Source of the DNA: a virus | Lineage: Duplodnaviria > Heunggongvirae > Uroviricota > Caudoviricetes | IMG/VR virus record: IMGVR_UViG_2690316099_000006 | DNA: 27,026 bases | Direction: 5' to 3' (one strand) | Part shown: positions 1 to 27,026 of the stretch, piece by piece | How the letters are laid out: each line of letters opens with the position of its first letter | How positions within the stretch are numbered: the stretch's first letter is position 1 | Made by a program: the position numbers and the translations under genes | Notes under the pieces: model-generated | What the model saw: only the letters and a program-made list of their open reading frames with translations | What the model was told of the DNA's origin: nothing | The model's database searches: none

Positions 1-27
1 AAACCTCGGTTTACAGGAAACGGTAAA
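1..27 (+). other. Gin/Pin-family crossover site copy (gix/pix-like), truncated by window edge
   Basis: AAACCTCGGTTTACAGGAAACGGTAAA at the start of tail-fibre cassette 1. Positions 3-27 are the exact reverse complement of 4534-4558. Resembles the Mu gix half-site as I recall it (..AAACCTCGGTTTACAGGAA). Confidence 0.5.
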
Positions 28-1118
28 CAAGGCTGGTAACGCCGTGCAAAAAAATGGCGATACGTTGTCCGGTGGACTTACTTTTGAAAACGACTCAATC
101 CTTGCCTGGATTCGAAATACTGACTGGGCAAAGATTGGGTTTAAAAATAATTCGGATGCAGACACCGATTCCTACATGTGGTTTGAAACAGGCAACAACG
201 GCAATGAATATTTCAAATGGAGACACCGCATCATTGGCACCCGGCCTAAAGACCTGATGAATCTTAAATGGAATGCTTTGTCTGTTCTTGTTGAAGCCCT
301 TTTCAGCAGTGAAGTGAAAATATCGACAGTCAATGCACTGAGGATATTTAATTCATCTTTTGGTGCCATTTTTCGTCGTTCTGAAGAATGCCTGCATATC
401 ATCCCTACACGAGAGAATGAAGGGGAAAATGGTAATATAGGGCCACTACGCCCCTTTACGCTTAATCTCAGAACTGGCCGGATAAGCATGGGGCATGGTC
501 TTGATGTTACAGGGGATATATTTGCAAACCGTTTTGNNNNNNNNNNNNNNNNNNNNNNNNNNNNNNNNNNNNNNNNNNNNNNNNNNNNNNNNNNNNNNNN
601 NNNNNNNNNNNNNNNNNNNNNNNNNNNNNNNNNNNNNNNNNNNNNNNNNNNNNNNNNNNNNNNNNNNNNNNNNNNNNNNNNNNNNNNNNNNNNNNNNNNN
701 NNNNNNNNNNNNNNNNNNNNNNNNNNNNNNNNNNNNNNNNNNNNNNNNNNNNNNNNNNNNNNNNNNNNNNNNNNNNNNNNNNNNNNNNNNNNNNNNNNNN
801 NNNNNNNNNNNNNNNNNNNNNNNNNNNNNNNNNNNNNNNNNNNNNNNNNNNNNNNNNNNNNNNNNNNNNNNNNNNNNNNNNNNNNNNNNNNNNNNNNNNN
901 NNNNNNNNNNNNNNNNNNNNNNNNNNNNNNNNNNNNNNNNNNNNNNNNNNNNNNNNNNNNNNNAAACATGGAATTTTCAGTGCCCGTCAGGCTATGTACT
1001 GACGGGGATTAACGTACAGGATACCGGAAAAAACTCTGCCGATAATATTGCAGGCGTTCATTACAGGCCAGTGCAAAAGTATATAAATGGCACTTGGTAT
1101 AATGTGGCGAGTATTTAA
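2..1118 (+). CDS. H: Tail fibre protein C-terminal variable cassette 1 (P2 gpH C-terminal homologue); 5-prime end outside window, interior 537-963 masked
   Basis: Frame from position 2 translates [47 protein letters not shown]..., matching the P2 H region after residue ~400. It ends ...[17 protein letters not shown] at stop 1116-1118, like the P2 H C-terminus. Confidence 0.8.
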
Positions 1119-1119
1119 T

Positions 1120-1647
1120 ATGATGCACTTAAAGAACATAAAAGCAGGTAATGCTAAAACAGTGGAGCAGTATGAGTTAACAAAGAAGCACGGAGTCATC
1201 TGGCTTTACTCTGAGGACGGAAAAAACTGGTATGAGGAAGTGAAGAACTTTCAGCCAGACACAATAAAGATTGTTTACGATGCAAATAATATTATTGTCG
1301 CCATCACCAAAGATGCCTCCACGCTTAACCCTGAAGGTTATAGCGTCGTTGAGGTTCCTGATATTACAGCTAATCGTCGTGCTGATGATTCCGGTAAGTG
1401 GATGTTTAAGGACGGAGCTGTGGTTAAACGGATTTATACGGCTGACGAACAGCAACAACAGGCCGAATCACAAAAGGCCGCATTGCTTTCCGAAGCTGAA
1501 TCAGTCATCCAGCCGCTGGAACGCGCTGTCAGGCTGAATATGGCGACGGACGAGGAACGCACACGACTGGAAGCATGGGAACGCTACAGTGTTCTGGTCA
1601 GCCGTGTGGATACGGCAAAGCCAGAATGGCCACAAAAGCCTGAGTAA
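1120..1647 (+). CDS. G: Tail fibre assembly chaperone (P2 gpG-like) for cassette 1
   Basis: [23 protein letters not shown]...[52 protein letters not shown]... is near-identical to P2 G as recalled. Start sits 2 nt after the cassette stop. Confidence 0.9.
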
Positions 1648-1652
1648 AAATT

Positions 1653-1672
1653 AAGGCCCGATATCGGGCCTT
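1653..1672. terminator. Perfect 20-bp palindrome AAGGCCCGATATCGGGCCTT between convergent chaperone genes; candidate bidirectional terminator
   Basis: Lies between the stop of G (1647) and the stop of the minus-strand chaperone (1676), flanked by A/T-rich sequence. Confidence 0.5.
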
Positions 1673-1675
1673 GTT

Positions 1676-2209
1676 TCATTCTGGTTGTTCGGGAAACGTT
1701 ACTGGCAGGCTGGAGGTGTCTGTGGATTCGACCTTCTGCGCATAGAGCATCCACTCGGTTAATTTTTGTTTATTCTCGTCGGAAATAATGCCCAGCCGTA
1801 GCTGTGAGTCCCATAGCTGGGTTTTATCCCTGACGAGCTGTAGCAGGCTTTGCTTTTCATTTTCCGCTTGTTGCCTCTGCTCTTCCCCGGTATAAGTTCG
1901 CTTTATCACTACGCCATCTTTGAACATCCATTTACCTGAAATATCAGCCCGGCGATTTGCTGTAATATCAGGAACCTCAACGACGCTTGCGCCTTCCGGA
2001 TTAATTGCTGAAACATCCTTTTCAATACAAATAATAACGCCGTTGTGGTCATAGACCATTTTCAACGTATCAGGCTGAAAGTTCTTTTGTTCCTCATACC
2101 AGTTTTTCCCATCCTCTGTATAAAGCCATTTGATGTTAAATTGTTTCGTTAGCTGGTATTGCTCTTTTGTTTCAGGATTACCAGCAGAAATGTTTTTTAA
2201 GTGCATCAT
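1676..2209 (-). CDS. Tail fibre assembly chaperone (second, divergent allele) for cassette 2
   Basis: MMHLKNISAGNPETKEQYQLTKQ...[41 protein letters not shown]... has the same N-terminal and core motifs as G with a divergent C-terminus. Convergent with G. Confidence 0.9.
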   Translation of the reverse strand: MMHLKNISAGNPETKEQYQLTKQFNIKWLYTEDGKNWYEEQKNFQPDTLKMVYDHNGVIICIEKDVSAINPEGASVVEVPDITANRRADISGKWMFKDGVVIKRTYTGEEQRQQAENEKQSLLQLVRDKTQLWDSQLRLGIISDENKQKLTEWMLYAQKVESTDTSSLPVTFPEQPE

Positions 2210-2211
2210 CG

Positions 2212-3748
2212 TTAAATACTCCCCGCGTTATACCACGTCCCATTAATGCAATACTGAATTGGCCTTGCCTGAGTTGTATCAATTAGTTCATCTCTGTTTG
2301 AGTTAACGGAACCGGTAACAACATAACCTGACCTGTCAGACCATCCGGGACCATTCCATGTCTGAACAGATAACAGACCACCAAGGCGAATACCTGTAAT
2401 AAACCTTGAGTTACATTCTGCCTGCGTATATGCACCAACATCTCCCGCAGAGGGTTTGCGGGTTGTGGTGTAAAACTCTGACCAGTCAGCTTCAAAGCCA
2501 TAACCATCACGCGCTGAACGATAAAAAATACCNNNNNNNNNNNNNNNNNNNNNNNNNNNNNNNNNNNNCCGTTCCTGTAATTCACGCGGAACTGTACAGC
2601 AGGGCAGCTCCCCGTATTCATATTGAAGTGGAGGATTAATGTCGATGCGCCACCAATGTTTGCGTTATAGACCCCGCTATTCCAGTTCCAGCCAACAGCT
2701 TTATCATTTCCGACAGTGCTTCCTGTTTGCCCNNNNNNNNNNNNNNNNNNNNNNNNNNNNNNNNNNNNNNNNNNNNNNNNNNNNNNNNNNNNNNNNNNNN
2801 NNNNNNNNNNNNNNNNNNNNNNNNNNNNNNNNNNNNNNNNNNNNNNNNNNNNNNNNNNNNNNNNNNNNNNNNNNNNNNNNNNNNNNNNNNNNNNNNNNNN
2901 NNNNNNNNNNNNNNNNNNNNNNNNNNNNNNNNNNNNNNNNNNNNNNNNNNNNNNNNNNNNNNNNNNNNNNNNNNNNNNNNNNNNNNNNNNNNNNNNNNNN
3001 NNNNNNNNNNNNNNNNNNNNNNNNNNNNNNNNNNNNNNNNNNNNNNNNNNNNNNNNNNNNNNNNNNNNNNNNNNNNNNNNNNNNNNNNNNNNNNNNNNNN
3101 NNNNNNNNNNNNNNNNNNNNNNNNNNNNNNNNNNNNNNNNNNNNNNNNNNNNNNNNNNNNNNNNNNNNNNNNNNNNNNNNNNNNNNNNNNNNNNNNNNNN
3201 NNNNNNNNNNNNNNNNNNNNNNNNNNNNNNNNNNNNNNNNNNNNNNNNNNNNNNNNNNNNNNNNNNNNNNNNNNNNNNNNNNNNNNNNNNNNNNNNNNNN
3301 NNNNNNNNNNNNNNNNNNNNNNNNNNNNNNNNNNNNNNNNNNNNNNNNNNNNNNNNNNNNNNNNNNNNNNNNNNNNNNNNNNNNNNNNNNNNNNNNNNNN
3401 NNNNNNNNNNNNNNNNNNNNNNNNNNNNNNNNNNNNNNNNNNNNNNNNNNNNNNNNNNNNNNNNNNNNNNNNNNNNNNNNNNNNNNNNNNNNNNNNNNNN
3501 NNNNNNNNNNNNNNNNNNNNNNNNNNNNNNNNNNNNNNNNNNNNNNNNNNNNNNNNNNNNNNNNNNNNNNNNNNNNNNNNNNNNNNNNNNNNNNNNNNNN
3601 NNNNNNNNNNNNNNNNNNNNNNNNNNNNNNNNNNNNATTTTGGCCCCGTGGCTGACAGATATAGCACCTGTTCTCAGATTTATAGCGAATGGCCTTAATG
3701 GGCCGATATTACCGTTTTCGCCTTGTCCTTCAGCCGTCGGAATGAAAT
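2212..3748 (-). CDS. Tail fibre C-terminal variable cassette 2 (inverted, promoterless); upstream limit hidden in mask 3749-4074
   Basis: Hand translation of the minus strand 2532 to 2212 gives ...GYVVTGSVNSNRDELIDTTQARPIQYCINGTWYNAGSI with a stop at 2212-2214. Further upstream, 3637-3748 encodes [36 protein letters not shown], parallel to [27 protein letters not shown] in cassette 1. The reading frame changes across masked blocks. Confidence 0.7.
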
Positions 3749-4076
3749 NNNNNNNNNNNNNNNNNNNNNNNNNNNNNNNNNNNNNNNNNNNNNNNNNNNN
3801 NNNNNNNNNNNNNNNNNNNNNNNNNNNNNNNNNNNNNNNNNNNNNNNNNNNNNNNNNNNNNNNNNNNNNNNNNNNNNNNNNNNNNNNNNNNNNNNNNNNN
3901 NNNNNNNNNNNNNNNNNNNNNNNNNNNNNNNNNNNNNNNNNNNNNNNNNNNNNNNNNNNNNNNNNNNNNNNNNNNNNNNNNNNNNNNNNNNNNNNNNNNN
4001 NNNNNNNNNNNNNNNNNNNNNNNNNNNNNNNNNNNNNNNNNNNNNNNNNNNNNNNNNNNNNNNNNNNNNNNNNNAT

Positions 4077-4155
4077 GAACAAATATTTGAAGATAAATTA
4101 AGCGGAACAAGGACAGGCCGACCTGGATTAAAACGTGCTTTAAAGCGCCTTCAAA
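4077..4155 (+). CDS. Serine DNA invertase (Gin/Pin/Cin/Hin family), visible N-terminal segment only; start estimated near 3996 inside the mask, 3-prime part masked or absent
   Basis: Plus frame gives EQIFEDKLSGTRTGRPGLKRALKRLQ, near-identical to Gin/Pin residues ~28-53 as recalled (EQIFEDKLSGTRTDRPGLKRALKRLQ). Confidence 0.75.
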
Positions 4156-4447
4156 NNNNNNNNNNNNNNNNNNNNNNNNNNNNNNNNNNNNNNNNNNNNN
4201 NNNNNNNNNNNNNNNNNNNNNNNNNNNNNNNNNNNNNNNNNNNNNNNNNNNNNNNNNNNNNNNNNNNNNNNNNNNNNNNNNNNNNNNNNNNNNNNNNNNN
4301 NNNNNNNNNNNNNNNNNNNNNNNNNNNNNNNNNNNNNNNNNNNNNNNNNNNNNNNNNNNNNNNNNNNNNNNNNNNNNNNNNNNNNNNNNNNNNNNNNNNN
4401 NNNNNNNNNNNNNNNNNNNNNNNNNNNNNNNNNNNNNNNNNNNNNNN

Positions 4448-5567
4448 GGCAGGCACCAATATTTTTGGTGAAGGTATCTTTCCCCGGAATATCTGCGCCG
4501 TTCTGGTTTTTCTGTAATGCGCCAGAAGCCTGATTTACCGTTTCCTGTAAACCGAGGTATTCGATAACGGCGGCAACGGTCGATTTCGCAAGAATATCCC
4601 GCCCGACTTTTGTCAGGGTTGCCAGGCTGGCGACATCATTCCCCGTAAAATACGGAAACCTGTCTGCCGCAGTAGCAAGCCCCGCCAGCGCCGTCAGAGT
4701 GGCATCTTTCGGTTGCTTACCCGCAAGCGCGTTAGTCATGGTGGTCGCAAAATTCGGGTCGTTGCCCAGCGCCGCCGCCAGCTCGTTCAGTGTGTTCAGT
4801 GCATCAGGCGAAGAGTCTACAAGTGCGGCAATCGCAGCCATAACGAAAGCCGTGCTTGCGATTTGGGTATTATTCGTTCCCTGTCGCGCAGTTGGTGTTG
4901 TTGGCGTTCCGGTCAGTGCCGGGCTGTTTAATGGGGCTTTCTTGTTCGTTTCATCCATTACTGCCTTAACGGCTTTTGGTGTCGCTGCCAGCGTTTCAGA
5001 CGTGCTGTTGGTGGCGTTGCTGAGCTGGACAAGGCCTTTTGCGGTCAGCGAGGCGTCCGGGTGACGTCGTGACTGTTCATGCTCTTTCAGTTTGTCATCC
5101 ACGTAATTCACTGTGGCCATCACCATGGTGTTATCCACGGTAAGCGCCACAGTGGCAGTGCTGGATACGGTCAGAATGGTGCGAAATGTTTGTGCACGTC
5201 CGGATCCTTCGGCAACGGTTGGCTTGTAACTTTCGGCAGTATTGCCTACCGCGATCAAATCGCCGTGCTCATCAAACACACCAATTTCCCGGATCCAGAA
5301 TCCGCCCGTTTCAGGAGGAATAACCAGCTCCGCAATAATGTGGTTCTGATGTGTTGCGTCCAGGGTGACGCGATTAACGGTATGTCGCCACACCTCATGC
5401 ACAAGACGGGTCTGCTTACTGTCTGGCGTGGGTAAAGTACCGCCGCCGTCACCCACGGCCATATGTGTCAGGCGGACAGGTTTCCCATCTGGCGCGGTTG
5501 CCTGCGCTAATTTTTTTGCACCCGTATCGGTGATAATGGTTTTAAATTTTCGTGTTGTGGTACTCAT
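4448..5567 (-). CDS. H: Tail fibre protein H, N-terminal constant region plus crossover junction; 3-prime end hidden in mask 4156-4447
   Basis: MSTTTRKFKTIITDTGAKKLAQATAPDGKPVRLTHMAVGDGGG...SETLAATPKAVKAVMDETNKKAPLNSPALTGTPTTPTARQGTNNTQIA...[14 protein letters not shown] matches P2 H closely. After ETVN it diverges into QASGALQKNQNGADIPGKDTFTKNIGAC. Confidence 0.85.
4542..4567 (-). other. Gin/Pin-family crossover site (gix/pix-like) inside H at the constant/variable junction
   Basis: Plus strand TTCCTGTAAACCGAGGTATTCGATAA; minus strand reads TTATCGAATACCTCGGTTTACAGGAA, an imperfect 26-bp dyad close to the gix consensus as I recall it. It encodes VIEYLGLQE. Inverted relative to the copy at 1-27. 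Confidence 0.6.
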
Positions 5568-5569
5568 GC

Positions 5570-6133
5570 TTAATCGTCCGGATAAATGGTAATGACTTCA
5601 CCGTCGTAAGTTGCTGCTGCCGCGAAAATATCTCCCTGAATCTCCTGAATGATATTCAGCCCTGTCATGTGGCGGCTGACCGGGCGGGCATCAGCAATCA
5701 ACCGCTCCATTTCCAGATACATTTCCTCCGTCACGCCACTGTCCAGCGTGCCAACATCAATCTTGAATGTTCCGGGTTCGCCGTTGAACTCCCACCACTC
5801 AGACACGCGAATGAGGTATCCCAGCGGCTCAATGGCCCGTCGCAGGGCGCTGATGGTTCCTTTGTGTCGGTGTATCAGCCATGCATCACGAATCACCTGT
5901 CGCTTTGTCTCTTCCGGCCAGTTGCGATCCCAGCGGTCAACGGAAAACGCCCAGGCGAGATAAGGCAGCAGATGCACCGGGCAGGTGTCCGGCGACCACA
6001 GCGTGTTGAGGTCTGCCGGAATGTCTGTAATGCGTGTTCCGACGGCTTCGGCACAACGCATGAAATTGCTGGCTGATGGTGGTAACAGTGAATTACTCAT
6101 TACGCCCACCTTCGCTGATGGTGAATGACTCAC
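5570..6133 (-). CDS. I: Baseplate assembly protein (P2 gpI-like)
   Basis: 187-aa ORF immediately upstream of H; position and size fit P2 I. Confidence 0.8.
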   Translation of the reverse strand: MSHSPSAKVGVMSNSLLPPSASNFMRCAEAVGTRITDIPADLNTLWSPDTCPVHLLPYLAWAFSVDRWDRNWPEETKRQVIRDAWLIHRHKGTISALRRAIEPLGYLIRVSEWWEFNGEPGTFKIDVGTLDSGVTEEMYLEMERLIADARPVSRHMTGLNIIQEIQGDIFAAAATYDGEVITIYPDD

Positions 6134-6989
6134 AGCGCGCCGCCTGTATGTCGCTGATGGCCATATTCTGTGTGGGTTCGATTATCTCCACGCGTTGCAC
6201 ACCGTGCACATGCAGTGCGGCAGCAATGGCGGACAACGCCACGTCCTGACCGATAAGCCCCTGCTCAGCCAGCCACTTCCTGAACGACGATTCAGCCGCA
6301 GCCAGAATAGGTTCGGATTCCGGACCGGGGTAAAAGTACAGTTTTGCATTCAGCCGCCATGTCACGATTCTGGCACTCTGTACGGTCAGGCGGTCGGCCA
6401 CCGGGCGGGTATCCTCTGCATTCAGAACGGCGCGAACGGTATTAAGCAACGCCTCCGTTGCTGTGCCGTCGCCCTCAGTGGACAGGATGGAAACCGTCAC
6501 ATTTGCCGGAGACGGACTGATGGCCCGCGCATCGCGCACCAGACCGCTGGCGCTGCGGGCAAAATACTCGTATGCGCCTGACGGGCCTGCAACACTCAGG
6601 CCGTCATACGCCCGCTGCGCCCGCAGTCTCAGCGAGGTGTCGTTCTCCATCACCACGTCGGTGGTATCCGTTGCCGGAGTGATAACCAGGCGCTTTGTGT
6701 TCATATTGCCCGCGAGGTTGTCCAGGTCTGTTCCGGCGCTGTGGCTCAACATGCAGGCGCGTGCGGCCTCATTGACCCGCTGGCGTAACAGCATTTCACG
6801 AAACGACATGGTTTGAGCGATAACGTTCAGGGGTTCCGATTCCAGTTCCAGTGCGGCGGAGACGACTTCACGCTGTTCGGCGGGATAAGCTGCAATCATC
6901 ATGGCCTTTGTGTCAGCCAGAATTGCCTCAAAGTCAGGCTCCGCGATGATGGCGGGTTCCGGTAACTGGGAAAGGTCAACGGCAGGCAT
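6093..6989 (-). CDS. J: Baseplate protein J
   Basis: 298 aa. MPAVDLSQLPEP...RQRVNEAARA...GLSVAGPSGAYEYFARSA...RPVADRLTVQSA...YFYPGPESEPI... matches P2 J. Confidence 0.85.
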   Translation of the reverse strand: MPAVDLSQLPEPAIIAEPDFEAILADTKAMMIAAYPAEQREVVSAALELESEPLNVIAQTMSFREMLLRQRVNEAARACMLSHSAGTDLDNLAGNMNTKRLVITPATDTTDVVMENDTSLRLRAQRAYDGLSVAGPSGAYEYFARSASGLVRDARAISPSPANVTVSILSTEGDGTATEALLNTVRAVLNAEDTRPVADRLTVQSARIVTWRLNAKLYFYPGPESEPILAAAESSFRKWLAEQGLIGQDVALSAIAAALHVHGVQRVEIIEPTQNMAISDIQAARCESFTISEGGRNE

Positions 6990-6992
6990 GAT

Positions 6993-7343
6993 TTACTCCC
7001 TCAGCGTGATGGTTAATTCAACATTCTGCATGGTCTGCATGACAGTGCCCGACAGCGTCACCCCGGCGTGGCCTCCTGCCTTCCAGACAACGTCGATGGC
7101 GTTCAGGGCAATGCGTGGTTCCCATCGTGTCAGTGCAATCACGGTAGCACTCATGCATTGCAGACGCGTGGTGTTATTCATGGGTTCGTCAATCAAATCA
7201 GGCACAAGGCTGCCATATTCCCGTCGCATAACCCGGCTTGCCAGCGGGGTGGTCAGGATGTCCCTGACTGACTGTTTCAGGTGCGCCATATCGTTCAGGT
7301 TTCCCGTCCCGTCCGGGTTCATTCCTGTGTAGCGGGTTGTCAC
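6993..7343 (-). CDS. W: Baseplate wedge protein W (gp25-like)
   Basis: 116 aa, position between V and J, size equals P2 W. Confidence 0.8.
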   Translation of the reverse strand: MTTRYTGMNPDGTGNLNDMAHLKQSVRDILTTPLASRVMRREYGSLVPDLIDEPMNNTTRLQCMSATVIALTRWEPRIALNAIDVVWKAGGHAGVTLSGTVMQTMQNVELTITLRE

Positions 7344-7921
7344 TGCGGGCCTCCTGTCGAATCGCTGCCACCTTTAACGCCACCGTGCTTATGCGTATGC
7401 ACTGTGATGCCGTTTGAGGTGAAATCGCCGCCGCTGTGCGTGATATTGCCGCTCATCGTTCCCCCTTTTGTGACGTCAAGCGTCGCTGTTCTCAGAAGGT
7501 CTGTGCATTCCACGACAGGCGTGTTCAGTGTCACGCTGATGGATGCCTGCAAAGTGGCCGTTTTCATGCCGCTTGCGCTCAGTGCGCCTGCGTCCGCGTC
7601 GTAGCGGAACACCGCGCCGTCCGGCGCGCTGACCACGATTTCTTTCAGGCTTTTGCCGGGTGCCGGAATGGCATCACTCCACAGGCTGCCGATTATCATG
7701 GCGGTTTCCGGGTTGCCGCCGATGCAGGCAATTGCCACCTGTTCGCCTGGTGATGGCGGAAACCACACGTTGAAGTCTCCCGCGCGCGTGGTGTTCCAGC
7801 GCAGCCAGCCTGTTTCCAGTTCGCCGCTGCGAACGCGCACGCACCAGGATTCCTCATCAACTTCAGAGATGATCCCGGTGCGGATGATATTGCTCAGCAG
7901 TCGCATGAGTTCTGCGCTCAT
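7340..7921 (-). CDS. V: Baseplate spike/hub protein V
   Basis: ...IRTGIISEVDEE...RVRSGELETGWLRW...VTKGGTMSGNITHSGGDFTSNGITVHTHKHGG... matches P2 V (..QKGGTMRGNIEHTGGELSSNGKVLHTHKH..). Confidence 0.85.
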   Translation of the reverse strand: MSAELMRLLSNIIRTGIISEVDEESWCVRVRSGELETGWLRWNTTRAGDFNVWFPPSPGEQVAIACIGGNPETAMIIGSLWSDAIPAPGKSLKEIVVSAPDGAVFRYDADAGALSASGMKTATLQASISVTLNTPVVECTDLLRTATLDVTKGGTMSGNITHSGGDFTSNGITVHTHKHGGVKGGSDSTGGPQ

Positions 7922-8458
7922 CGTACAGCCTCCGCAATCCGGCCCAGCACCGTGTTATAAATCAGGCGCTCATCTGCCTGGCTGATACCCAGCAGCTCAC
8001 GTACCGGGTAATCGGTGAAAATGCCCGGCGCAACCTGATCGCGCTCACCGAACTGATGAACGCGTGCAATACGTGCGGCCACGCCGCTGTAACCCACCGT
8101 CACACCGGAAGCATCTGCACGGGCTTTCAGGTAGCGGGCGGTGCGCAGTTTTACGAACATGGAGACGCGCCTGGTGCTGTCCTGGTTGATGCGCCGGGTG
8201 CGTATTTCCAGAAAACGGTCGATGTCATCCCGGTAAAACGTGCGGATATTGTTTTTATCCTCATCCCACCCGGTGATGGTTCGCCCGTATTTCCCCGTGT
8301 CGTGATGCCAGTTTTTCAGCGTGCGTGCTTCGTTATTCCAGATAAAGCGAATGCGCTCCTGTATCCGGGTTACGCGGCGTCTGCGTGGTGTCCATGCGGT
8401 CCCGTCCGGCGCTTTCTGTGACCGGATACGCGCCTGCTGGGCGCGGCGTAAATCCTGT
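7918..8458 (-). CDS. S: Tail completion / virion morphogenesis protein (P2 gpS-like); 5-prime end in mask, where gene R is presumably also hidden
   Basis: Minus frame is open from the mask edge to the stop at 7918. Position between V and the lysis genes matches P2 S/R. Family assignment is by synteny more than sequence. Confidence 0.5.
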
Positions 8459-9243
8459 NNNNNNNNNNNNNNNNNNNNNNNNNNNNNNNNNNNNNNNNNN
8501 NNNNNNNNNNNNNNNNNNNNNNNNNNNNNNNNNNNNNNNNNNNNNNNNNNNNNNNNNNNNNNNNNNNNNNNNNNNNNNNNNNNNNNNNNNNNNNNNNNNN
8601 NNNNNNNNNNNNNNNNNNNNNNNNNNNNNNNNNNNNNNNNNNNNNNNNNNNNNNNNNNNNNNNNNNNNNNNNNNNNNNNNNNNNNNNNNNNNNNNNNNNN
8701 NNNNNNNNNNNNNNNNNNNNNNNNNNNNNNNNNNNNNNNNNNNNNNNNNNNNNNNNNNNNNNNNNNNNNNNNNNNNNNNNNNNNNNNNNNNNNNNNNNNN
8801 NNNNNNNNNNNNNNNNNNNNNNNNNNNNNNNNNNNNNNNNNNNNNNNNNNNNNNNNNNNNNNNNNNNNNNNNNNNNNNNNNNNNNNNNNNNNNNNNNNNN
8901 NNNNNNNNNNNNNNNNNNNNNNNNNNNNNNNNNNNNNNNNNNNNNNNNNNNNNNNNNNNNNNNNNNNNNNNNNNNNNNNNNNNNNNNNNNNNNNNNNNNN
9001 NNNNNNNNNNNNNNNNNNNNNNNNNNNNNNNNNNNNNNNNNNNNNNNNNNNNNNNNNNNNNNNNNNNNNNNNNNNNNNNNNNNNNNNNNNNNNNNNNNNN
9101 NNNNNNNNNNNNNNNNNNNNNNNNNNNNNNNNNNNNNNNNNNNNNNNNNNNNNNNNNNNNNNNNNNNNNNNNNNNNNNNNNNNNNNNNNNNNNNNNNNNN
9201 NNNNNNNNNNNNNNNNNNNNNNNNNNTGGCCCGCTTATCGGCG

Positions 9244-10545: not shown

Positions 10546-10736
10546 AGCTGTATCATCTCTCGTTGTTTTTTCTTCTCCGGCTCCGGCATTTCCACCTCCT
10601 GTCCGGCTTCCAGAAATACCTGTCGGCAGAGTCCGGGGTTGGCATCCAGCACCTTTTCGGTGACGCCCTGCGTCGTGCCGTAGTACCGGAAACAGAGCGA
10701 ATCCACGGTGTCGCCTTCCAGTGTCTTCACTTTCAT
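10539..10736 (-). CDS. X: Tail protein X (LysM-like)
   Basis: MKVKTLEGDTVDSLCFRYYGTTQGVTEKVLDANPGL... matches P2 X (MKTFALQGDTLDAICVRYYGRTEGVVETVLAANPGL...). Start taken at the internal ATG. Confidence 0.8.
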   Translation of the reverse strand: MKVKTLEGDTVDSLCFRYYGTTQGVTEKVLDANPGLCRQVFLEAGQEVEMPEPEKKKQREMIQLW

Positions 10737-11308
10737 CAGCACAACTCCGCAAAGATTCGCGGGCGGCACAGAATGTCAGAGATGGCCCAGCTCACATCGC
10801 GCCACAAATCCGATGTCTGTATATCCAGTGCGTCCGCCCGGCGGTCGCCCTTGTCCGTTGTGTCCGCATCGCGGTAACGCTCCAGAATCAGGGCGCGTGT
10901 GGCGGTATAAACAGCATTGCGCCAGTGCCAGAGATTGACGCTTTCTCCGTTAATTACAGGTGCCGGAACATCGGCCAGCGTCTGATGGCCNNNNNNNNNN
11001 NNNNNNNNNNNNNNNNNNNNNNNNNNNNNNNNNNNNNNNNNNNNNNNNNNNNNNNNNNNNNNNNNNNNNNNNNNNNNNNNNNNNNNNNNNNNNNNNNNNN
11101 NNNNNNNNNNNNNNNNNNNNNNNNNNNNNNNNNNNNNNNNNNNNNNNNNNNNNNNNNNNNNNNNNNNNNNNNNNNNNNNNNNNNNNNNNNNNNNNNNNNN
11201 NNNNNNNNNNNNNNNNNNNNNNNNNNNNNNNNNNNNNNNNNNNNNNNNNNNNNNNNNNNNNNNNNNNNNNNNNNNNNNNNNNNNNNNNNNNNNNNNNNNN
11301 NNNNNCAT
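10736..11308 (-). CDS. L: Head completion protein L (interior 10991-11305 masked)
   Basis: Visible C-terminal half plus position between M and X. Start is ATG at 11308 or GTG at 11317. Confidence 0.6.
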   Translation of the reverse strand: MXXXXXXXXXXXXXXXXXXXXXXXXXXXXXXXXXXXXXXXXXXXXXXXXXXXXXXXXXXXXXXXXXXXXXXXXXXXXXXXXXXXXXXXXXXXXXXXXXXXXXXXXXGHQTLADVPAPVINGESVNLWHWRNAVYTATRALILERYRDADTTDKGDRRADALDIQTSDLWRDVSWAISDILCRPRIFAELC

Positions 11309-11409
11309 GGGGTTCACTCCTGAAAAAATCGGGCGGTGGGTGCGCGGTGTAAACGGTCACGGAGCCAAACCGGAACACCGCGCACGCCGCCCGCTGACGG
11401 GGTCAGTCG

Positions 11410-12210
11410 TTAACCGCGCTTCGCCTTCTGCGTCGCGGTGGTTTTTCGTGTTGCAGGCTTCCGCGTTGTCTTTTTACTTTCGCTGCTTTCGTCCTGCGCC
11501 TGCTGTGCGCTGGCGTCTTCTGGTGCGGCTGCGGAATCGGCTTTTTTCAGGGCGCGGGAAAGGGTTGCAATCTCGCGTTTCACACCTGCGTTCTGGTTCA
11601 GATGCATCGCTTCGCGCAGCAGCTTCAGTGATGAGGCCATGCTGTCCGCATCGCTCAGGCCACGGCGGGCAAAGGCGCACGCCTTGCATAATTTGGCGCG
11701 CACTTCGTCCGGCATATCCTGGTTGGCGACAATTTCCCAAAGTGTGTCCAGTGGTTCGATAAAGACGGACAAATCCGCGTCGGCATCCGTCCCGGCCTGC
11801 GTCAGTACCGGATTGCAGATTTCTTCGGTCAGCACTGTGGCAGCAGTACGGCCAAAGTTATCCGGCATGATGAGGTTGTGACGGACCGCATACGCACCAA
11901 TACGCAGCGCAAGCGGAAGATCGCCGCAGTCAATCGCCCACACCATCAGCGTGGCAATCACTTCGTCCTGTTGCCCGCCGTCAGCCTCCAGCGTTCCCTC
12001 AATCCAGCCGGAAAAGTCCGGCAACAACGCTTTTTTGATGTCGGCTTTCGCGCTTCTGGCCTGTACGCCCTTAAGCCGGGCCTGTGCCAGACGCAGACGA
12101 TACAGCACCTCTTCATGCGCGGTACGCGCGGCGTGGTCCACACCTTCATTCGCCCGGCCTGCGCGCTGTGCCATCACGTTCTGCCAGTGTTGCTGTGCAG
12201 GAGTAATCAT
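11410..12210 (-). CDS. M: Terminase endonuclease (small) subunit M
   Basis: 266 aa; contains ...QDMPDEVRAKLCKACAFARRG... matching P2 M (ADMPDEVRAKLHKITGLFLRDG) and a basic C-terminal tail as in P2 M. Confidence 0.85.
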   Translation of the reverse strand: MITPAQQHWQNVMAQRAGRANEGVDHAARTAHEEVLYRLRLAQARLKGVQARSAKADIKKALLPDFSGWIEGTLEADGGQQDEVIATLMVWAIDCGDLPLALRIGAYAVRHNLIMPDNFGRTAATVLTEEICNPVLTQAGTDADADLSVFIEPLDTLWEIVANQDMPDEVRAKLCKACAFARRGLSDADSMASSLKLLREAMHLNQNAGVKREIATLSRALKKADSAAAPEDASAQQAQDESSESKKTTRKPATRKTTATQKAKRG

Positions 12211-18590: not shown

Positions 18591-19260
18591 GGATACGCGA
18601 TTTCGCAGCGTTCGGAAAATCNNNNNNNNNNNNNNNNNNNNNNNNNNNNNNNNNNNNNNNNNNNNNNNNNNNNNNNNNNNNNNNNNNNNNNNNNNNNNNN
18701 NNNNNNNNNNNNNNNNNNNNNNNNNNNNNNNNNNNNNNNNNNNNNNNNNNNNNNNNNNNNNNNNNNNNNNNNNNNNNNNNNNNNNNNNNNNNNNNNNNNN
18801 NNNNNNNNNNNNNNNNNNNNNNNNNNNNNNNNNNNNNNNNNNNNNNNNNNNNNNNNNNNNNNNNNNNNNNNNNNNNNNNNNNNNNNNNNNNNNNNNNNNN
18901 NNNNNNNNNNNNNNNNNNNNNNNNNNNNNNNNNNNNNNNNNNNNNNNNNNNNNNNNNNNNNNNNNNNNNNNNNNNNNNNNNNNNNNNNNNNNNNNNNNNN
19001 NNNNNNNNNNNNNNNNNNNNNNNNNNNNNNNNNNNNNNNNNNNNNNNNNNNNNNNNNNNNNNNNNNNNNNNNNNNNNNNNNNNNNNNNNNNNNNNNNNNN
19101 NNNNNNNNNNNNNNNNNNNNNNNNNNNNNNNNNNNNNNNNNNNNNNNNNNNNNNNNNNNNNNNNNNNNNNNNNNNNNNNNNNNNNNNNNNNNNNNNNNNN
19201 NNNNNNNNNNNNNNNNNNNNNNNNNNNNNNNNNNNNNNNNNNNNNNNNNNNNNNNNNNNN

Positions 19261-20319: not shown

Positions 20320-23097
20320 TTTCCACTGGTCAGGCCACCCCGCAGCAGGTCTGCTTTGCGGCGGGCGCGTTCAGTGGTTTCACTGATTCTCTGTGCGTGC
20401 TCTGCGTCGCGGATGGCGCGCAGCATGTCAGAAAGCACGGTAACGGGTGTTTTCATGGTGTTCTGGTCCTGCTGAAGTGTGGATGCCAGGCGTGCGGCGG
20501 CTTCAGGGTCTGATGCCCCCAGCTGTGTCAGATAGCTGGCGACCGGGTTATGGCGGATCTCCGTGCTGCTTACGCCATGATTACGGCTCAGGCGCTGCCA
20601 GAGCTGCGTGATTCGGCTGTCCGGGCGGGTATCCGGTTTGCGTACAATTTCAAATCCCTGCGGTGCAATGATGCTGCCGTCAACGTACAGACTGCCGCCC
20701 CGTAACAGGTGCTGCATCTGTTGTTCACCGATATGCAGGCCGAGAGATTCAGCAGACTCCCGCCATTCTTTAGCGAGTAATTCGTGGTTATCAGGCAAAG
20801 GCCGCTGCTGTTTGCGGCTCTGTGTCCAGCTCTGCATTTCATCACTGCTGTTTTTTGCCTGTTTGTCACGAAGCGAACGCATCAGCGCCCGGCGTTCGTG
20901 CCGTTTCAGTGAGCGCATCCATTCATCCACATCAACGCCGTCAGGGAGCTGCGGCCACGGTGCTGGCCGTTCTTCCGGCTGTTCTGTCCCGTTGTTGTCC
21001 GTTTCCTGTACACGGGGACAGTTATTGCCACGAGTCCAAGGGGCGGCAGGGCCGCCCTGAAGGTCAAAACCATTTTCGCGGGCGCTGTCTTCCGCTTCCG
21101 GTTTGCGTCTTACCAGCTTCCAGTTATCCGGATGCGTGCACACACGGGAGGATTCCCCGATGAGTGGTGACCAGATCCCGTAAATCTGTACGCTCTGTTC
21201 GCCGTAATCGTTCAGCTCATCGGCGAGGTCGTAGGCGGTGCGAATCAGGTAGTCTTTGCGTGGAACAAGTACGCCGCCCTGTTTCTCTATGTAGGTGGCA
21301 AAACATCCGGCATCAGCGGCGGCAAGAACCGCATCCATTGCGTCATCCTTCAGCCGTTGCGGGCCTTCCGGGTTGCGTGCCATCTGGCTGGCAAGGCGGC
21401 GCAGTTCACGCCATACCTGGCGGGAGGGGATGCCAAAGAACTGGAACTGGCGGACCCGGNNNNNNNNNNNNNNNNNNNNNNNNNNNNNNNNCCCAGCCGA
21501 TGGCGCGTTCCACGCTCTCGGCCATTGATTTTCCGGTTTCGTGGTCAACGCGTGGCTTGCCCGTTTTCGGGTCGATGCCATCCACGGCGCGGCTGTCCAG
21601 GTTTTTCCCGATGTAGGTGGCGATGTAGCTGGTTGGCGTGCCTTTTGAGCCGTCTACATACTCCGCCTTAAAGCGCGGAGTTATGTCATCGCCCAGCTCG
21701 TGACGATCTTCCTGAATGGCAATATCGCGGGTGTGGGACACAATGGTGTCGATTTCTTCCGGATGAGCAAAGACCATCATATGCCAGTGCACGGTGCCGT
21801 CATGGTGAGGCTCCGCCGTGCGGATGCCATACCAGCGCAGGCCGTCGCGGTTCAGTTTTTTGCGGACCGTCGCAAAAAACGTGTTAACCAGGTAATCGCT
21901 GGAGTCGCGCATTGTGGCCCCGTTCCATTTGGGATTCGGATGACCGTTCTCCGTTGTGGCGTGGTATTTTGACGGGCAGGTGACAGTCAGAAACACCGCT
22001 TTGTCGCCACGGGCTTCGGCCAGAAGTTCCAGCCCCTTCATGGTGGCCATCATTTCTGCCTTACGGTGAACCGGGTTACTTACTCCCGCGTAATACACCG
22101 TCTCGAGATCAATCGTGAACCCGTCTTCATTTTCCAGCATGAAACTTTTCAGGAAATCGCGTGTTTTCTCGCGCTGTGCGCGAAACTCGCTTAACGCGTC
22201 CTGGCTCAGATAGGGCGATGTTTTTCTGGAAACCAGACAGGCGGCGCGAAGTTGTTCTTCTCTCCACTCGCAACGTAACAGCCACAGTTTGCGTTTCCAC
22301 CATTCCGCACAGGTCAGGCGAAGGATTGCGCCCGGCAGCAGTTCTGTGTCCGGTTCGTGCCTCCGGTCTTTGTCTGTTGTCAGTGCGTCATAATGCGGAG
22401 GCATGGCGTGTAAGTGTAACGCCATGCGGGCCAGCATCTGATACGCCTTCAGCGTTACATCCATGGTCAGCTCGCCATCAGTCGCGCCAAAACCATCGCA
22501 GAGTTTTTCGAAGGTGCTGCTGAACATCGCCGCCGTCATGGTGGCCAGCGTCTGTATCTGGTGTTTGTTGAGTTGCGGCAGGTAAAGCAAATCGTCCAGG
22601 CGTTCACGTCCGGCAAGGGAGCGATAACCCGGTGTCAGCCAGTGTCCGTCAGTGCGATCCAGACGTTCGAATATTTTGCGCAGGGTTCCGCGTGCATAGC
22701 GTTCCGCCTGCCAGCTCTTTTTGCCTTTCCGGCGATCGGCTTCCTGTTTTTTGCGCAGGAAGGAGAGGTGGCGAATAAGCGGATCGCGCAGATAGGACGG
22801 CAGCAGGCGCAGCGAGGCCATGGCTTCATCCACCGCGCCGCGTGCCTGTTTTCTGGCGTCTCCTGCCAGTGTGATGGTTTTGTCCTGTTTTTCCTGTGCG
22901 TCCAGGCTTTTATTAATCAGGTTGCCCAGTGGCGTGGCGGAGAACGCCGCATCAGCCATTTCCTGGCGGCGCTCGTTCTCTGCCCGGTGGGCATCCAGCC
23001 AGGAGGAAAGCGCGGATTCAGGAGCGGGGATCCCCGTTCCTTCACGCCCCACTGCGTGGCGCGGTTGTTGCCAGTCCCTGATGTACTCTGCCGTCAT
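20253..23097 (-). CDS. A: Replication initiator (rolling-circle endonuclease) A; frame appears to change across masked block 21460-21491
   Basis: N-terminal 535 aa (21492-23097) has ...MKGLELLAEARGDKAVFLTVTCPSKYH...GTVHWHMMVF...TPTSYIATYIGKNL... typical of P2 gpA. Downstream of the 32-nt mask an open ~400-aa frame continues to 20253 in a different frame. Confidence 0.75.
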
Positions 23098-23469: not shown

Positions 23470-24020
23470 TGCGGCAATCCTCTTGTTACAGATGTGCGAA
23501 GGCCTCCCNNNNNNNNNNNNNNNNNNNNNNNNNNNNNNNNNNNNNNNNNNNNNNNNNNNNNNNNNNNNNNNNNNNNNNNNNNNNNNNNNNNNNNNNNNNN
23601 NNNNNNNNNNNNNNNNNNNNNNNNNNNNNNNNNNNNNNNNNNNNNNNNNNNNNNNNNNNNNNNNNNNNNNNNNNNNNNNNNNNNNNNNNNNNNNNNNNNN
23701 NNNNNNNNNNNNNNNNNNNNNNNNNNNNNNNNNNNNNNNNNNNNNNNNNNNNNNNNNNNNNNNNNNNNNNNNNNNNNNNNNNNNNNNNNNNNNNNNNNNN
23801 NNNNNNNNNNNNNNGTTAGTGGGTTGCTACACCCAAACGGCATCAGGTTTACCTGATAAGAAAAGCGACCGCCTGTTTTGCGCTCTTTTCTTGTGACTAA
23901 ACCGCTGCGCCAGAGACGGCGTAGCTCCGCATTAATGGTTGTGGTTGGTGTATTCAGTGCTGCGGCGATTTCTCCACTGCTACAACCCGGATTGGCAGCG
24001 ATGTAGTCCAGAATGGTCAT
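23466..24020 (-). CDS. Hypothetical protein with N-terminal winged-helix-like segment; interior 23519-23814 masked
   Basis: MTILDYIAANPGCSSGEIAAALNTPTTTINAELRRLWRSGLVTRKER... looks like a wHTH. Length and frame through the mask are unverified. Confidence 0.4.
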   Translation of the reverse strand: MTILDYIAANPGCSSGEIAAALNTPTTTINAELRRLWRSGLVTRKERKTGGRFSYQVNLMPFGCSNPLXXXXXXXXXXXXXXXXXXXXXXXXXXXXXXXXXXXXXXXXXXXXXXXXXXXXXXXXXXXXXXXXXXXXXXXXXXXXXXXXXXXXXXXXXXXXXXXXXXXXXXXGGLRTSVTRGLPQ

Positions 24021-24416: not shown

Positions 24417-24662
24417 TCATGCGATATTTCCCAGCTTATACGGTTCAATATGTTCCCCGCATTCTGCGGCACAGATCAGCTCGGAAAGTTCGTTAAGTGC
24501 ATCCAGATCATCAGCGTAAAAAGCCACGTCATACAGACTTCGGATTGCTCTGGTCAATGAGTCACGGGCCGCACGTTCAGCATGAGCGCCTGATGCACTT
24601 AACGAACTTTCCGAGCTGATCTGTGCCGCATTAATGAGAGTTTTATATTCTTTGCCCATCAC
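24417..24662 (-). CDS. Hypothetical small protein (81 aa) containing a 39-bp perfect inverted repeat
   Basis: ORF MMGKEYKTLINAAQISSESSLSAS...DALNELSELICAAECGEH...; both repeat arms lie inside the coding frame. Coding status uncertain. Confidence 0.4.
   Translation of the reverse strand: MMGKEYKTLINAAQISSESSLSASGAHAERAARDSLTRAIRSLYDVAFYADDLDALNELSELICAAECGEHIEPYKLGNIA
24465..24630. repeat. Perfect 39-bp inverted repeat (arms ~24465-24503 and ~24592-24630) around an ~88-bp spacer
   Basis: Left arm TGCGGCACAGATCAGCTCGGAAAGTTCGTTAAGTGCATC; right arm is its exact reverse complement GATGCACTTAACGAACTTTCCGAGCTGATCTGTGCCGCA. Verified base by base. Confidence 0.75.
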
Positions 24663-26056: not shown

Positions 26057-27026
26057 ATGAGCATAAAATCAATTCCGGGAGGGTATCTTCTTGACATGCG
26101 TCCTGAGGGGCGTAAAGGCAAACGCATTCGCAAAAAATTTAAAACGAAATCGGATGCAGTTTTATATGAGCGGTGGGTGCTGGCGCAACAGCATAACAAT
26201 GAGTGGAAAGGAAACTCCATTGATCGCCGTCCGCTGTCAGTGCTTATTGACTTGTGGTGGAAATACCACGGCCAGCTAATGAAGTCAGGGCATAACACGC
26301 GCCTTAAATTGCTGCGCTTGAGTGAGGCAATGGATGACCCGTGCGTGCATAAACTTAATACAACGATGCTCACCGAGCTACGTGTGTCCAGGATAGAGCA
26401 GGGGATACAGCCCAGCACCATAAATCGAGAGATTGGGGCGTTAAGCGCGATGTTTACCGCACTCATCTCATCCGGCCATTTTCTTAACGATAACCCCGTT
26501 CAAGGCCTTAAAGGAATGAAGGTTAACGAGCGTGAAATGGGATATCTGAGTAAGTCTGAATGTGTTCAGTTGCTGGATGCACTGGCTGAAAATCCCGATG
26601 AACGGCTGGCCGTCGAAATCCTTCTGTCGACCGGGGCGCGATGGGGCGAGGTAGCGGCACTGGAGCAGCGCCGTGTTCTTCATTGTCGAATCACNNNNNN
26701 NNNNNNNNNNNNNNNNNNNNNNNNNNNNNNNNNNNNNNNNNNNNNNNNNNNNNNNNNNNNNNNNNNNNNNNNNNNNNNNNNNNNNNNNNNNNNNNNNNNN
26801 NNNNNNNNNNNNNNNNNNNNNNNNNNNNNNNNNNNNNNNNNNNNNNNNNNNNNNNNNNNNNNNNNNNNNNNNNNNNNNNNNNNNNNNNNNNNNNNNNNNN
26901 NNNNNNNNNNNNNNNNNNNNNNNNNNNNNNNNNNNNNNNNNNNNNNNNNNNNNNNNNNNNNNNNNNNNNNNNNNNNNNNNNNNNNNNNNNNNNNNNNNNN
27001 NNNNNNNNNNNGCTTCAGAAAATTCT
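26057..27026 (+). CDS. int: Tyrosine integrase (P2 Int-like), 5-prime part; runs through mask 26695-27011 and off the window edge
   Basis: Not in the ORF track (no stop in window). Hand translation from ATG 26057: MSIKSIPGGYLLDMRPEGRKGKRIRKKFKTKSDAVLYERW...DDPCVHKLNT...QGIQPSTINREIGALSAMFTALI...LSTGARWGEVAALE..., closely parallel to P2 Int (MAIKKLDDGRYEVDIRPTGRNGKRIRRKF...NDPCAF...QGIKPSSINRDL...FTALI...LSTGARWGEAARLK). Confidence 0.85.
   Translation, partial: MSIKSIPGGYLLDMRPEGRKGKRIRKKFKTKSDAVLYERWVLAQQHNNEWKGNSIDRRPLSVLIDLWWKYHGQLMKSGHNTRLKLLRLSEAMDDPCVHKLNTTMLTELRVSRIEQGIQPSTINREIGALSAMFTALISSGHFLNDNPVQGLKGMKVNEREMGYLSKSECVQLLDALAENPDERLAVEILLSTGARWGEVAALEQRRVLHCRIXXXXXXXXXXXXXXXXXXXXXXXXXXXXXXXXXXXXXXXXXXXXXXXXXXXXXXXXXXXXXXXXXXXXXXXXXXXXXXXXXXXXXXXXXXXXXXXXXXXXXXXXXXXFRKF

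Follow-up and report, generated by a model that had tools for sequence, protein, structure and literature searches.

Inversion of tail-fibre cassettes by recombinases of the Din family has been known since the G/Gin system of phage Mu. The B segment of Shigella boydii is the equivalent there of Mu G and, with its pinB invertase, is closely related to G/Gin; its inversion was reportedly described by Tominaga, Ikemizu and Enomoto in 1991 (J Bacteriol 173:4079). The sequences of the crossover sites bixL and bixR are listed in a secondary table (Table 3 of PMC3241671). Sequencing and PCR have demonstrated that such invertible loci of P2-like prophages vary in phase in EPEC (Goldberg et al. 2014, PMC4272514); the P88 paper makes no mention of inversion (PMC5285337).

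We analysed a stretch of 27,026 nt (hereafter the window), which is the whole of a deposited draft scaffold (GCA_001253215.1, CXDD01000031.1). It belongs to the P2-like (Peduoviridae) prophages, being collinear with an annotated P2-like prophage and sharing the P2 gene order (V, W, J, I, H ... capsid, terminase, portal, replication protein, cox, C, integrase), and the Pfam families of P2 are present in its relatives. The window contains two inverted copies of a short sequence, which are very probably the crossover sites that bound the invertible tail-fibre segment (B segment) of a P2-like, P88-type prophage, a segment that probably switches and into which extra islands were most likely mis-scaffolded. 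The switch itself is real yet ordinary; the system is already known and represents no new kind, and these same two sites have been in print since 1991. Table 1 gives the features of the segment.

Table 1. Features of the invertible tail-fibre segment and its surroundings, in window coordinates.
Feature	Position	Strand	Remarks
Left crossover site bixR, cut by the scaffold start	1-27		First 19 nt of bixR; outer half-site end 1-5, core TC 6-7, inner half-site GGTTTACAGGAA 8-19, repeat remainder 20-27
Cassette 1 (Hv1), alternative C-terminal 333 aa of H	28-1118	+	Without a start of its own
G1, tail-fibre assembly chaperone for Hv1, 175 aa	1120-1647	+	Caudo_TAP (PF02413)
G2, tail-fibre assembly chaperone for Hv2, 177 aa	1676-2209	-	Caudo_TAP (PF02413)
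Cassette 2 (Hv2), C-terminal part	2212-2732	-	
Gap-riddled block	2733-4447		904 N, 112 nt, 326 N, 81 nt, 292 N
Island 1, internal fragment of a third tail-fibre cassette (Hv3)	3637-3748	-	
Island 2, codons ~27-54 of a pin/gin-like invertase	4075-4155	+	...EQIFEDKLSGTRTGRPGLKRALKRLQ...
Hv2, N-terminal 29 aa	4448-4533	-	QASGALQKNQNGADIPGKDTFTKNIGAC; in frame with Hc
Right crossover site bixL and repeat remainder	4534-4567		bixL 4542-4567, core GA 4554-4555; 4534-4541 complete the exact repeat
H constant part beyond the right site	4568-5567	-	P2 H-like; Pfam Phage_tail_fib, Phage_fiber_2

The inverted repeat reported in a preliminary description of this DNA is genuine: positions 3-27 (ACCTCGGTTTACAGGAAACGGTAAA) are the exact reverse complement of 4534-4558, and the repeat extends, at 81% identity, to 52 nt (3-54 and 4507-4558). 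A search of the window for the 16-mer TTCCTGTAAACCGAGG with up to 3 mismatches returned two matches, both at the sites, where 0.11 would be expected by chance; at least two matches arose in none of 100 shuffles. The right site is present as the full 26 bp, TTCCTGTAAACC GA GGTATTCGATAA, matching Mu gix at 24 of 26 positions and bixL at all of them. The left copy, AAACC-TC-GGTTTACAGGAA, keeps 19 of the 26 nt of a site, namely the core, the whole inner half-site and just 5 nt of the outer one; in the relative L006 it is complete, TTATCTAAAACC TC GGTTTACAGGAA, and is bixR (both compared with Table 3 of PMC3241671). With one site complete in the window, the other complete in identical relatives, and cores of GA and TC, these are crossover sites of the Din family, as the original term 'gix-like' implied, and the term can be made more precise, since they are not merely gix-like but exactly bixL and bixR. 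Each site also codes for protein, the right one for ...YLGLQE within H and the left one for (N)LGLQETVN in the + frame.

The segment between the sites has the layout of a host-range switch, in which the constant part of the fibre gene (Hc) stands outside and two promoterless 3' parts face in opposite directions within, Hv2 with G2 on the minus strand and Hv1 with G1 on the plus strand, each with its own chaperone. The order Hc, site, Hv2, G2, inverted G1, inverted Hv1, site, invertase is found in L001, L006 and P88. Hc comprises residues 1-345 of H, ends in ...LGLQETVN and spans 4533-5567 on the minus strand, thereby including the right site. H is 72% identical to P2 H overall, and the original observation that this homology breaks off after ETVN agrees with our alignment, in which identity is 100% over residues 241-320, 31 of 40 in residues 321-360, and thereafter about 22% to the attached Hv2. 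Likeness to P2 H persists for about 80 aa into cassette 1 (92-97% identical), the first ~100 aa of Hv1 being 75% identical to P2 H; Hv1 shares 66% identity with the variable part of Mu S. Among the chaperones, G1 shares 90% identity with Mu U and 88% with P2 G, and G2 shares 97.7% with Mu U'.

Inversion was simulated in silico on L006, which is ungapped and matches window positions 1-8458 at 100% identity wherever these are readable, with cuts at the two core dinucleotides. As had been predicted, Hc is thereby fused in frame to cassette 1 (...LGLQETVN followed by the start of the cassette), giving an H of 678 aa. This product agrees with the H of L007 at every residue, and in L007 G1 lies directly downstream, so that the full-length H next to G expected after the flip exists in a relative. 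The suggestion that the window represents one isomer of a switch is likewise borne out by public sequences: the same G1 protein occurs in 10 distinct contexts, 6 in the window orientation and 4 flipped, and one annotated complete genome also has the flipped state. The junction sequences of these relatives are those of a reciprocal exchange inside the 25 bp of identity. Thus, both orientations occur in nature, through reciprocal exchange at the sites, as seen in relatives. The deposited orientation joins Hc to Hv2 with G2, a tip like Mu S'/U', and the flipped orientation joins it to Hv1 with G1, a tip like Mu S/U and P2 H/G; inversion swaps the fibre tip and with it the phage's receptor specificity.

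These junctions also bear on whether the repeat could be conserved coding sequence and nothing else, reflecting an ...LGLQETVN motif common to tail-fibre genes and having no role in recombination. The repeat does lie inside coding sequence, and its 81% identity runs 27 nt further into the homologous cassette starts. Yet it is the nucleotides that are identical, and they agree in full with published crossover sites, the isomers differ by reciprocal exchange precisely inside the repeat, and a dedicated invertase adjoins it in relatives, leaving this reading with almost no probability.

The cognate Gin-like invertase is situated outside the window, the scaffold ending at the left site. In identical relatives it is a protein of 195 aa with Resolvase (PF00239) and HTH_7 (PF02796) domains, whose gene starts 62 bp from bixR; it matches the Mu Gin structures 4m6f and 3uj3 (E = 1e-100), differing by one residue over aa 1-103. 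Over its first 200 nt the gene matches gin at 98.5% identity, a stretch in which the sis enhancer of gin lies, and by analogy we infer a putative Fis-dependent enhancer in the 5' part of the relatives' gene. If the mechanism follows that of the Gin/Hin family, a serine invertase of the PinB type, encoded 62 bp past the left site, would pair the two sites and cut at the central GA/TC dinucleotide, so inverting the segment, and would be assisted by host Fis and the enhancer in the 5' end of its own gene.

The preliminary description had made its case depend on the other half of the left site being present beyond the window. In some identical relatives that half-site, TTATCTAAAACC, is intact, as the description required; in others it is split by IS600, and yet this split form is found in both orientations. 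The scaffold starts exactly at the IS600/bixR junction of L003 and L008, and it probably breaks off there at a copy of IS600 lying within the outer half of bixR. Several identical relatives have this arrangement, in which ACACCTCAAACC replaces TTATCTAAAACC beside the core and the junction reads ...GTACACCTCA/AACC. If IS600 does split bixR here, 8 of the 12 outer half-site positions next to the core match, and inversion may be slowed. A stronger version would have the segment locked with Hc on Hv2, a frozen relic left when IS600 split bixR and parted the site from the invertase gene. The coincidence of the scaffold start with that junction and the replacement of the half-site would fit this, and P2 H itself holds a non-switching fossil site (TTATCGAATATCTCGGTTTACAGGAA). 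We consider a locked segment unlikely, though by no means negligible, given that the same IS600 insertion, in position and orientation, occurs unflipped in L008, L012, L013 and L003 and flipped in L007 and L010; a second IS600, in G2, is common to L008, L010 and L012. Since one insertion is found in both orientations, inversion came after it. Moreover, the core-proximal GTTT alone is often kept in one half of natural Din sites, such as hixR and the mix sites (PMC3241671, Table 3), the relatives that carry IS600 retain an intact invertase gene, and other Din invertases of the host could act in trans. The occurrence of the split bixR in both orientations suggests that one good half-site and a core-proximal GGTTT suffice for inversion, and a segment that switches remains our preferred reading.

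The size and the interior of the segment require correction. To judge from its relatives, the N runs of the scaffold, which stand identically in the deposited record, are assembly gaps of wrong length. Seven gaps of 427, 36, 768, 315, 639, 32 and 306 N correspond in 100%-identical relatives to 339, 1, 609, 237, 512, 10 and 142 nt respectively; the gap in Hv1 (537-963) is really 339 nt long and that of 36 N in Hv2 (2533-2568) is a single G. With 1-609 nt standing against 32-768 N, and the runs native to the record, they cannot be length-preserving masks. The run of 768 N (8459-9226) has the length of IS1 (768 bp) but is not that element, the relatives carrying 609 nt of the gpS/gpR genes there. 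Elsewhere, a 29-nt difference (24602-24630) that resembles a small inversion of the relatives' own sequence is instead an inverted copy of a nearby stretch. Because the gap lengths are wrong, the segment measures about 3.1 kb and not about 4.6 kb; the interval of 4.57 kb first given for the two sites (1-4567) does not stand, being distorted by mis-sized N runs and foreign islands.

Both islands lie in a gap-riddled block that corresponds to 365 nt of Hv2 in 100%-identical relatives (L003, L006). Island 1 is found at 100% identity in L004, L027, L029 and L033 but is missing from L006-L015; its home locus is an stf inversion module of the lambdoid type. Island 2 is 93.75% identical to the cognate invertase gene, inv1, and 100% identical to 21 IMG/VR contigs, and on this comparison it is a different allele and not the cognate invertase. 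Both L034 and an ST131 genome carry this allele as a truncated pseudogene, so truncation, being the allele's natural state at its home locus, is uninformative as a sign of rearrangement. An invertase gene carried inside invertible DNA between three sites of a single element was considered and rejected, both because of the 93.75% identity and because the Hv3 island is absent from all close relatives. Every junction of the block is hidden in gaps; we infer that the block is most likely mis-scaffolded, with both islands coming from a lambdoid stf inversion module. Analogous chimeric joins are seen in the public scaffolds L004 and L029.

The deposited order could instead be real, a piece of a lambdoid stf module having been captured within Hv2 of the B segment to form a nested system of three sites. 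The captured piece would comprise a partial Hv3 cassette, a third site identical to bixR in the gap at 3749-4074 and, with its enhancer, the 5' end of a dead pin gene; the left site could then invert with either of two partners, and Hv2 would be disrupted. The islands do follow each other as cassette (-), site and invertase (+) naturally do, in order, orientation and spacing, with 298 nt between them in L022, L029 and L034 against a gap of 326 N here; the site of the lambdoid module is identical to bixR, and three-site shufflons of P2-like prophages are documented (PMC4272514). No finished genome examined has the nested order, however: among the matches listed from 5,426 complete E. coli genomes, none joins the invertase island to the N-terminal part of Hv2, bixL and Hc, and the best cover 27% of the query, namely Hv3, site and Hc only. 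All 100%-identical relatives have the 365 nt at the position of the block; the islands are just 112 and 81 nt, set between gaps of unreliable size and identical to a common lambdoid locus, which is similarly nested into the present one in other draft scaffolds (L029). Furthermore, no site-specific event yields the nested order, for which an illegitimate insertion into Hv2 would be needed. A real nested order is thus distinctly improbable. Were it true, one cassette would have been destroyed, the invertible DNA would carry a second enhancer along with it, and the locus would be a snapshot of how a multi-cassette shufflon originates by exchange between unrelated prophages. Under mis-scaffolding, which we favour, the record serves as a caution: tail-fibre modules that can invert and exist in multiple copies break up and scramble short-read scaffolds, the lengths of N runs in such records are unusable as distances, and short islands between gaps can derive from another locus.

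Among known systems, the e14 P/Pin-type stf modules of lambdoid prophages concern this record as the source of both islands. They consist of an stf constant part, a site identical to bixR, two cassette-chaperone pairs, a second site and a pin gene, and they differ from the present locus in that the constant part is lambdoid Stf and the pin gene, in the examples examined, is a truncated pseudogene. Phage P2 has an H that is near-identical up to ETVN, continues into Hv1-like sequence and contains a site-like sequence matching bixL at 25 of 26 positions, but P2 has a single fixed fibre, without a second site, second cassette or invertase. P88 (Xuanwuvirus) and the P2-like prophage loci of E. coli have the same order, J-I-H(const)-site-Hv-G-G'-Hv'-site-invertase-U-T, with ~91-93% identity to P88 across the segment; three sites are present at one EPEC locus (PMC4272514) against two in the canonical form of the present locus. 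The Mu G/Gin system (also in D108 and SfMu) is 89% identical to the segment at the nucleotide level over 2.6 kb, has the same GA core, and its Gin is near-identical to the relatives' invertase in the catalytic domain. It differs in that the constant part of the fibre is here like P2 H and not Mu Sc, in that the host element is a P2-like prophage, and at the sites, where gix departs from bixL at 2 of 26 positions and from bixR at 1 of 26. From the B segment and pinB of Shigella boydii (GenBank D00660) no substantive difference was found in a comparison made through the listed sites (PMC3241671, Table 3). This record departs from that system in that the invertase and the outer half of bixR fall beyond the scaffold end, probably behind IS600, and in the gaps and two foreign islands within. 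Otherwise the correspondence is close: bixL is window 4542-4567; bixR is the full left site of L006, of which the window's left copy represents the first 19 nt; the published sites are ~3.2 kb apart, compared with ~3.1 kb in L006; and the invertase stands outside the bixR end, as it does in the relatives.

The inverted copies that the preliminary description had reported are exact: window positions 3-27 are the reverse complement of 4534-4558, and the repeat runs on to 52 nt at 81% identity (3-54 versus 4507-4558). With ≤3 mismatches, the TTCCTGTAAACCGAGG core motif occurs at two places in the window only, both of them copies of this repeat, against an expectation of 0.11; two matches were obtained in 0 of 100 shuffles. 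Their designation as gix-like holds in so far as both are Din-family sites, the right one sharing 24 of its 26 positions with Mu gix, but their actual identity is bixL and bixR, listed among the Din recombinase crossover sites as TTCCTGTAAACC GA GGTATTCGATAA and TTCCTGTAAACC GA GGTTTTAGATAA respectively (PMC3241671, Table 3). The right site equals bixL at every position, and the left is the reverse complement of the first 19 nt of bixR. The full left site of L006, an ungapped relative that is 100% identical to the readable parts of window 1-8458, is TTATCTAAAACC TC GGTTTACAGGAA, in complete agreement with bixR.

The window represents a P2-like prophage; between the fibre genes and the integrase it is collinear with an annotated prophage of this kind. 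Because the scaffold stops inside the integrase gene, the attachment-site end lies outside the record; the last 15 nt differ from relative L044 by one base. Tail-fibre gene H comprises a constant part (Hc) and alternative C-terminal parts (Hv1, Hv2) with respective chaperones (G1, G2). Intact relatives share with phage P88 the arrangement Hc, site, Hv, G, G', Hv', site, invertase, U, T. In these relatives, 62 bp separate bixR from the start of the invertase outside it; the enzyme carries a Resolvase and an HTH_7 domain, and its match to Mu Gin structures reaches E = 1e-100, residues 1-103 showing a single difference.

Coordinates of the features described
Feature	Sequence	Position	Strand	Remarks
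Hc	window	from 5567 down through right site	minus	H aa 1-345, ends LGLQETVN
Hv2	window	4448-4533 and 2212-2732	minus	continues Hc
G2	window	1676-2209	minus	after Hv2
Hv1	window	28-1118	plus	follows left site
G1	window	1120-1647	plus	after Hv1
Right site	window	4542-4567		complete 26 bp
Left site	window	1-19		AAACC TC GGTTTACAGGAA; remainder cut off by sequence start
Hv3 island	window	3637-3748	minus	internal fragment of third cassette
pin island	window	4075-4155	plus	codons ~27-54 of invertase allele; 93.75% identical to cognate gene
Prophage integrase	window	26059-27026		scaffold terminates inside gene
bixR-identical site + pin remnant, lambdoid stf module	L034; L054	9790-10160; 1937-2116
IS600 in bixR	L008; L007; L003	7696-8962; 12055-13330; 7236-7297
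N run 427	window	537-963		339 nt in relatives
N run 36	window	2533-2568		1 nt in relatives, a single G; apparent Hv2 frame shifted
N run 768	window	8459-9226		609 nt in relatives
N run 315	window	10991-11305		237 nt in relatives
N run 639	window	18622-19260		512 nt in relatives
N run 32	window	21460-21491		10 nt in relatives
N run 306	window	23509-23814		142 nt in relatives

Recombination between the sites had been proposed to fuse the H constant region in frame to cassette 1, restoring a full-length P2-like H next to G. When L006 was cut and flipped in silico between both core dinucleotides, it yielded a minus-strand ORF of 678 aa that is, residue for residue, the H product of L007, a real genome with G1 directly after H. 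The P2 H protein shows 100% identity across H aa 241-320 and almost complete identity up to ETVN; past that point, its identity is ~22% to Hv2 yet 92-97% to Hv1 for a further ~80 aa, so P2 homology stops at the site, as had been noticed, and picks up again in cassette 1. Ten distinct public contexts carry the exact G1 protein, six in the window orientation (L006, L008, L009, L012, L013, L014) and four flipped (L007, L010, L011, L015). Their junctions are reciprocal, the outer half-sites remaining with Hc and the invertase side while the inner ones travel with the cassettes, and the flipped state also occurs in an annotated complete E. coli genome with 100% junction identity. The first suggestion, that the present arrangement is one isomer of a switch, is supported by these relatives. 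Experiments in EPEC have demonstrated phase variation at the fibre loci of P2-like prophages (PMC4272514).

The outer left half-site, on which the proposal also depended, is intact in five identical relatives (L006, L009, L011, L014, L015) and split by IS600, with a 3-bp duplication (AAC), in six (L003, L007, L008, L010, L012, L013). The insertion places ACACCTCAAACC beside the core, matching bixR at 8 of 12 positions. The opening bases of the window are compatible with either allele; its first base coincides with the IS600/bixR junction of relatives, and an insertion is probable here, the scaffold start being as expected of an assembly break at a multi-copy IS. A second IS600, at about 10690-11950 in G2, is common to L008, L010 and L012, and presumably disables the Hv2 fibre in either orientation. 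Since the identical bixR insertion is known in both orientations, and that in G2 is shared by these three, inversion postdates insertion; the split bixR is probably still usable.

The window is the complete deposited draft scaffold. That scaffold (GCA_001253215.1, CXDD01000031.1) has the same length, 27,026 nt, and its last 12.6 kb are identical to the window, all N runs included; the window's 13 N runs are therefore assembly gaps. Sized against relatives 100% identical on either flank, most runs exceed the real distance by 22-164 nt; their lengths are not true distances. In block 2733-4447, 1,715 scaffold positions (1,522 being N) stand against 365 nt of Hv2 in identical relatives. The block holds two islands, one from a foreign cassette (Hv3; 100% match to seven IMG/VR contigs) and one from a pin allele (100% match to 21), both native to the stf inversion module of lambdoid prophages, where they lie 298 nt apart in the order Hv3(-), site identical to bixR, truncated pin pseudogene(+). 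What is left of pin there is some 60-100 codons long and contains internal stops. A functional invertase of another prophage could flip this module in trans, or recombine it with the P2-like segment. Further public draft scaffolds (L004, L029) have the lambdoid module nested in the P2-like one; among the matches listed from 5,426 complete E. coli genomes, none joins the pin island to Hv2N-bixL-Hc. As every block junction falls in gaps, we infer rather than show that the scaffolder misplaced both islands, but this is very probably so, and the true segment would be about 3.1 kb.

Elsewhere, a perfect 36-nt inverted repeat (24465-24500 versus 24595-24630) has the look of either a quasi-palindrome mutation, made by template switching, or an artefact of assembly. 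Positions 24602-24630 differ in every relative, the 8-nt GCACTTAA alone being common, and the 80-aa protein that the repeat creates (24417-24659) occurs in one contig only across the whole gene-position index.

The inverted repeats are thus confirmed and their interpretation as an inversion switch is supported; what is unusual is limited to draft-assembly properties and the probable IS600 in one half-site. Across 2.6 kb, the segment and Mu G share 89% identity, and the opening 200 nt of the relatives' invertase gene are 98.5% identical to Mu gin. Of the chaperones, G2 shares 97.7% identity with Mu U'; for G1 the values are 90% with Mu U and 88% with P2 G. On these likenesses, the deposited orientation is the Mu G(-)-like state. 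P2 H (L041) carries TTATCGAATATCTCGGTTTACAGGAA at the same codons (~377-386), a 25/26 match to bixL that looks like a fossil crossover site of the non-switching P2. The bixL and bixR sites belong to the invertible B segment with pinB of Shigella boydii (Tominaga et al. 1991, as cited in PMC3241671), and the system is an already known one, a Din-family tail-fibre inversion switch of the B/pinB and G/Gin type in a P2-like prophage.
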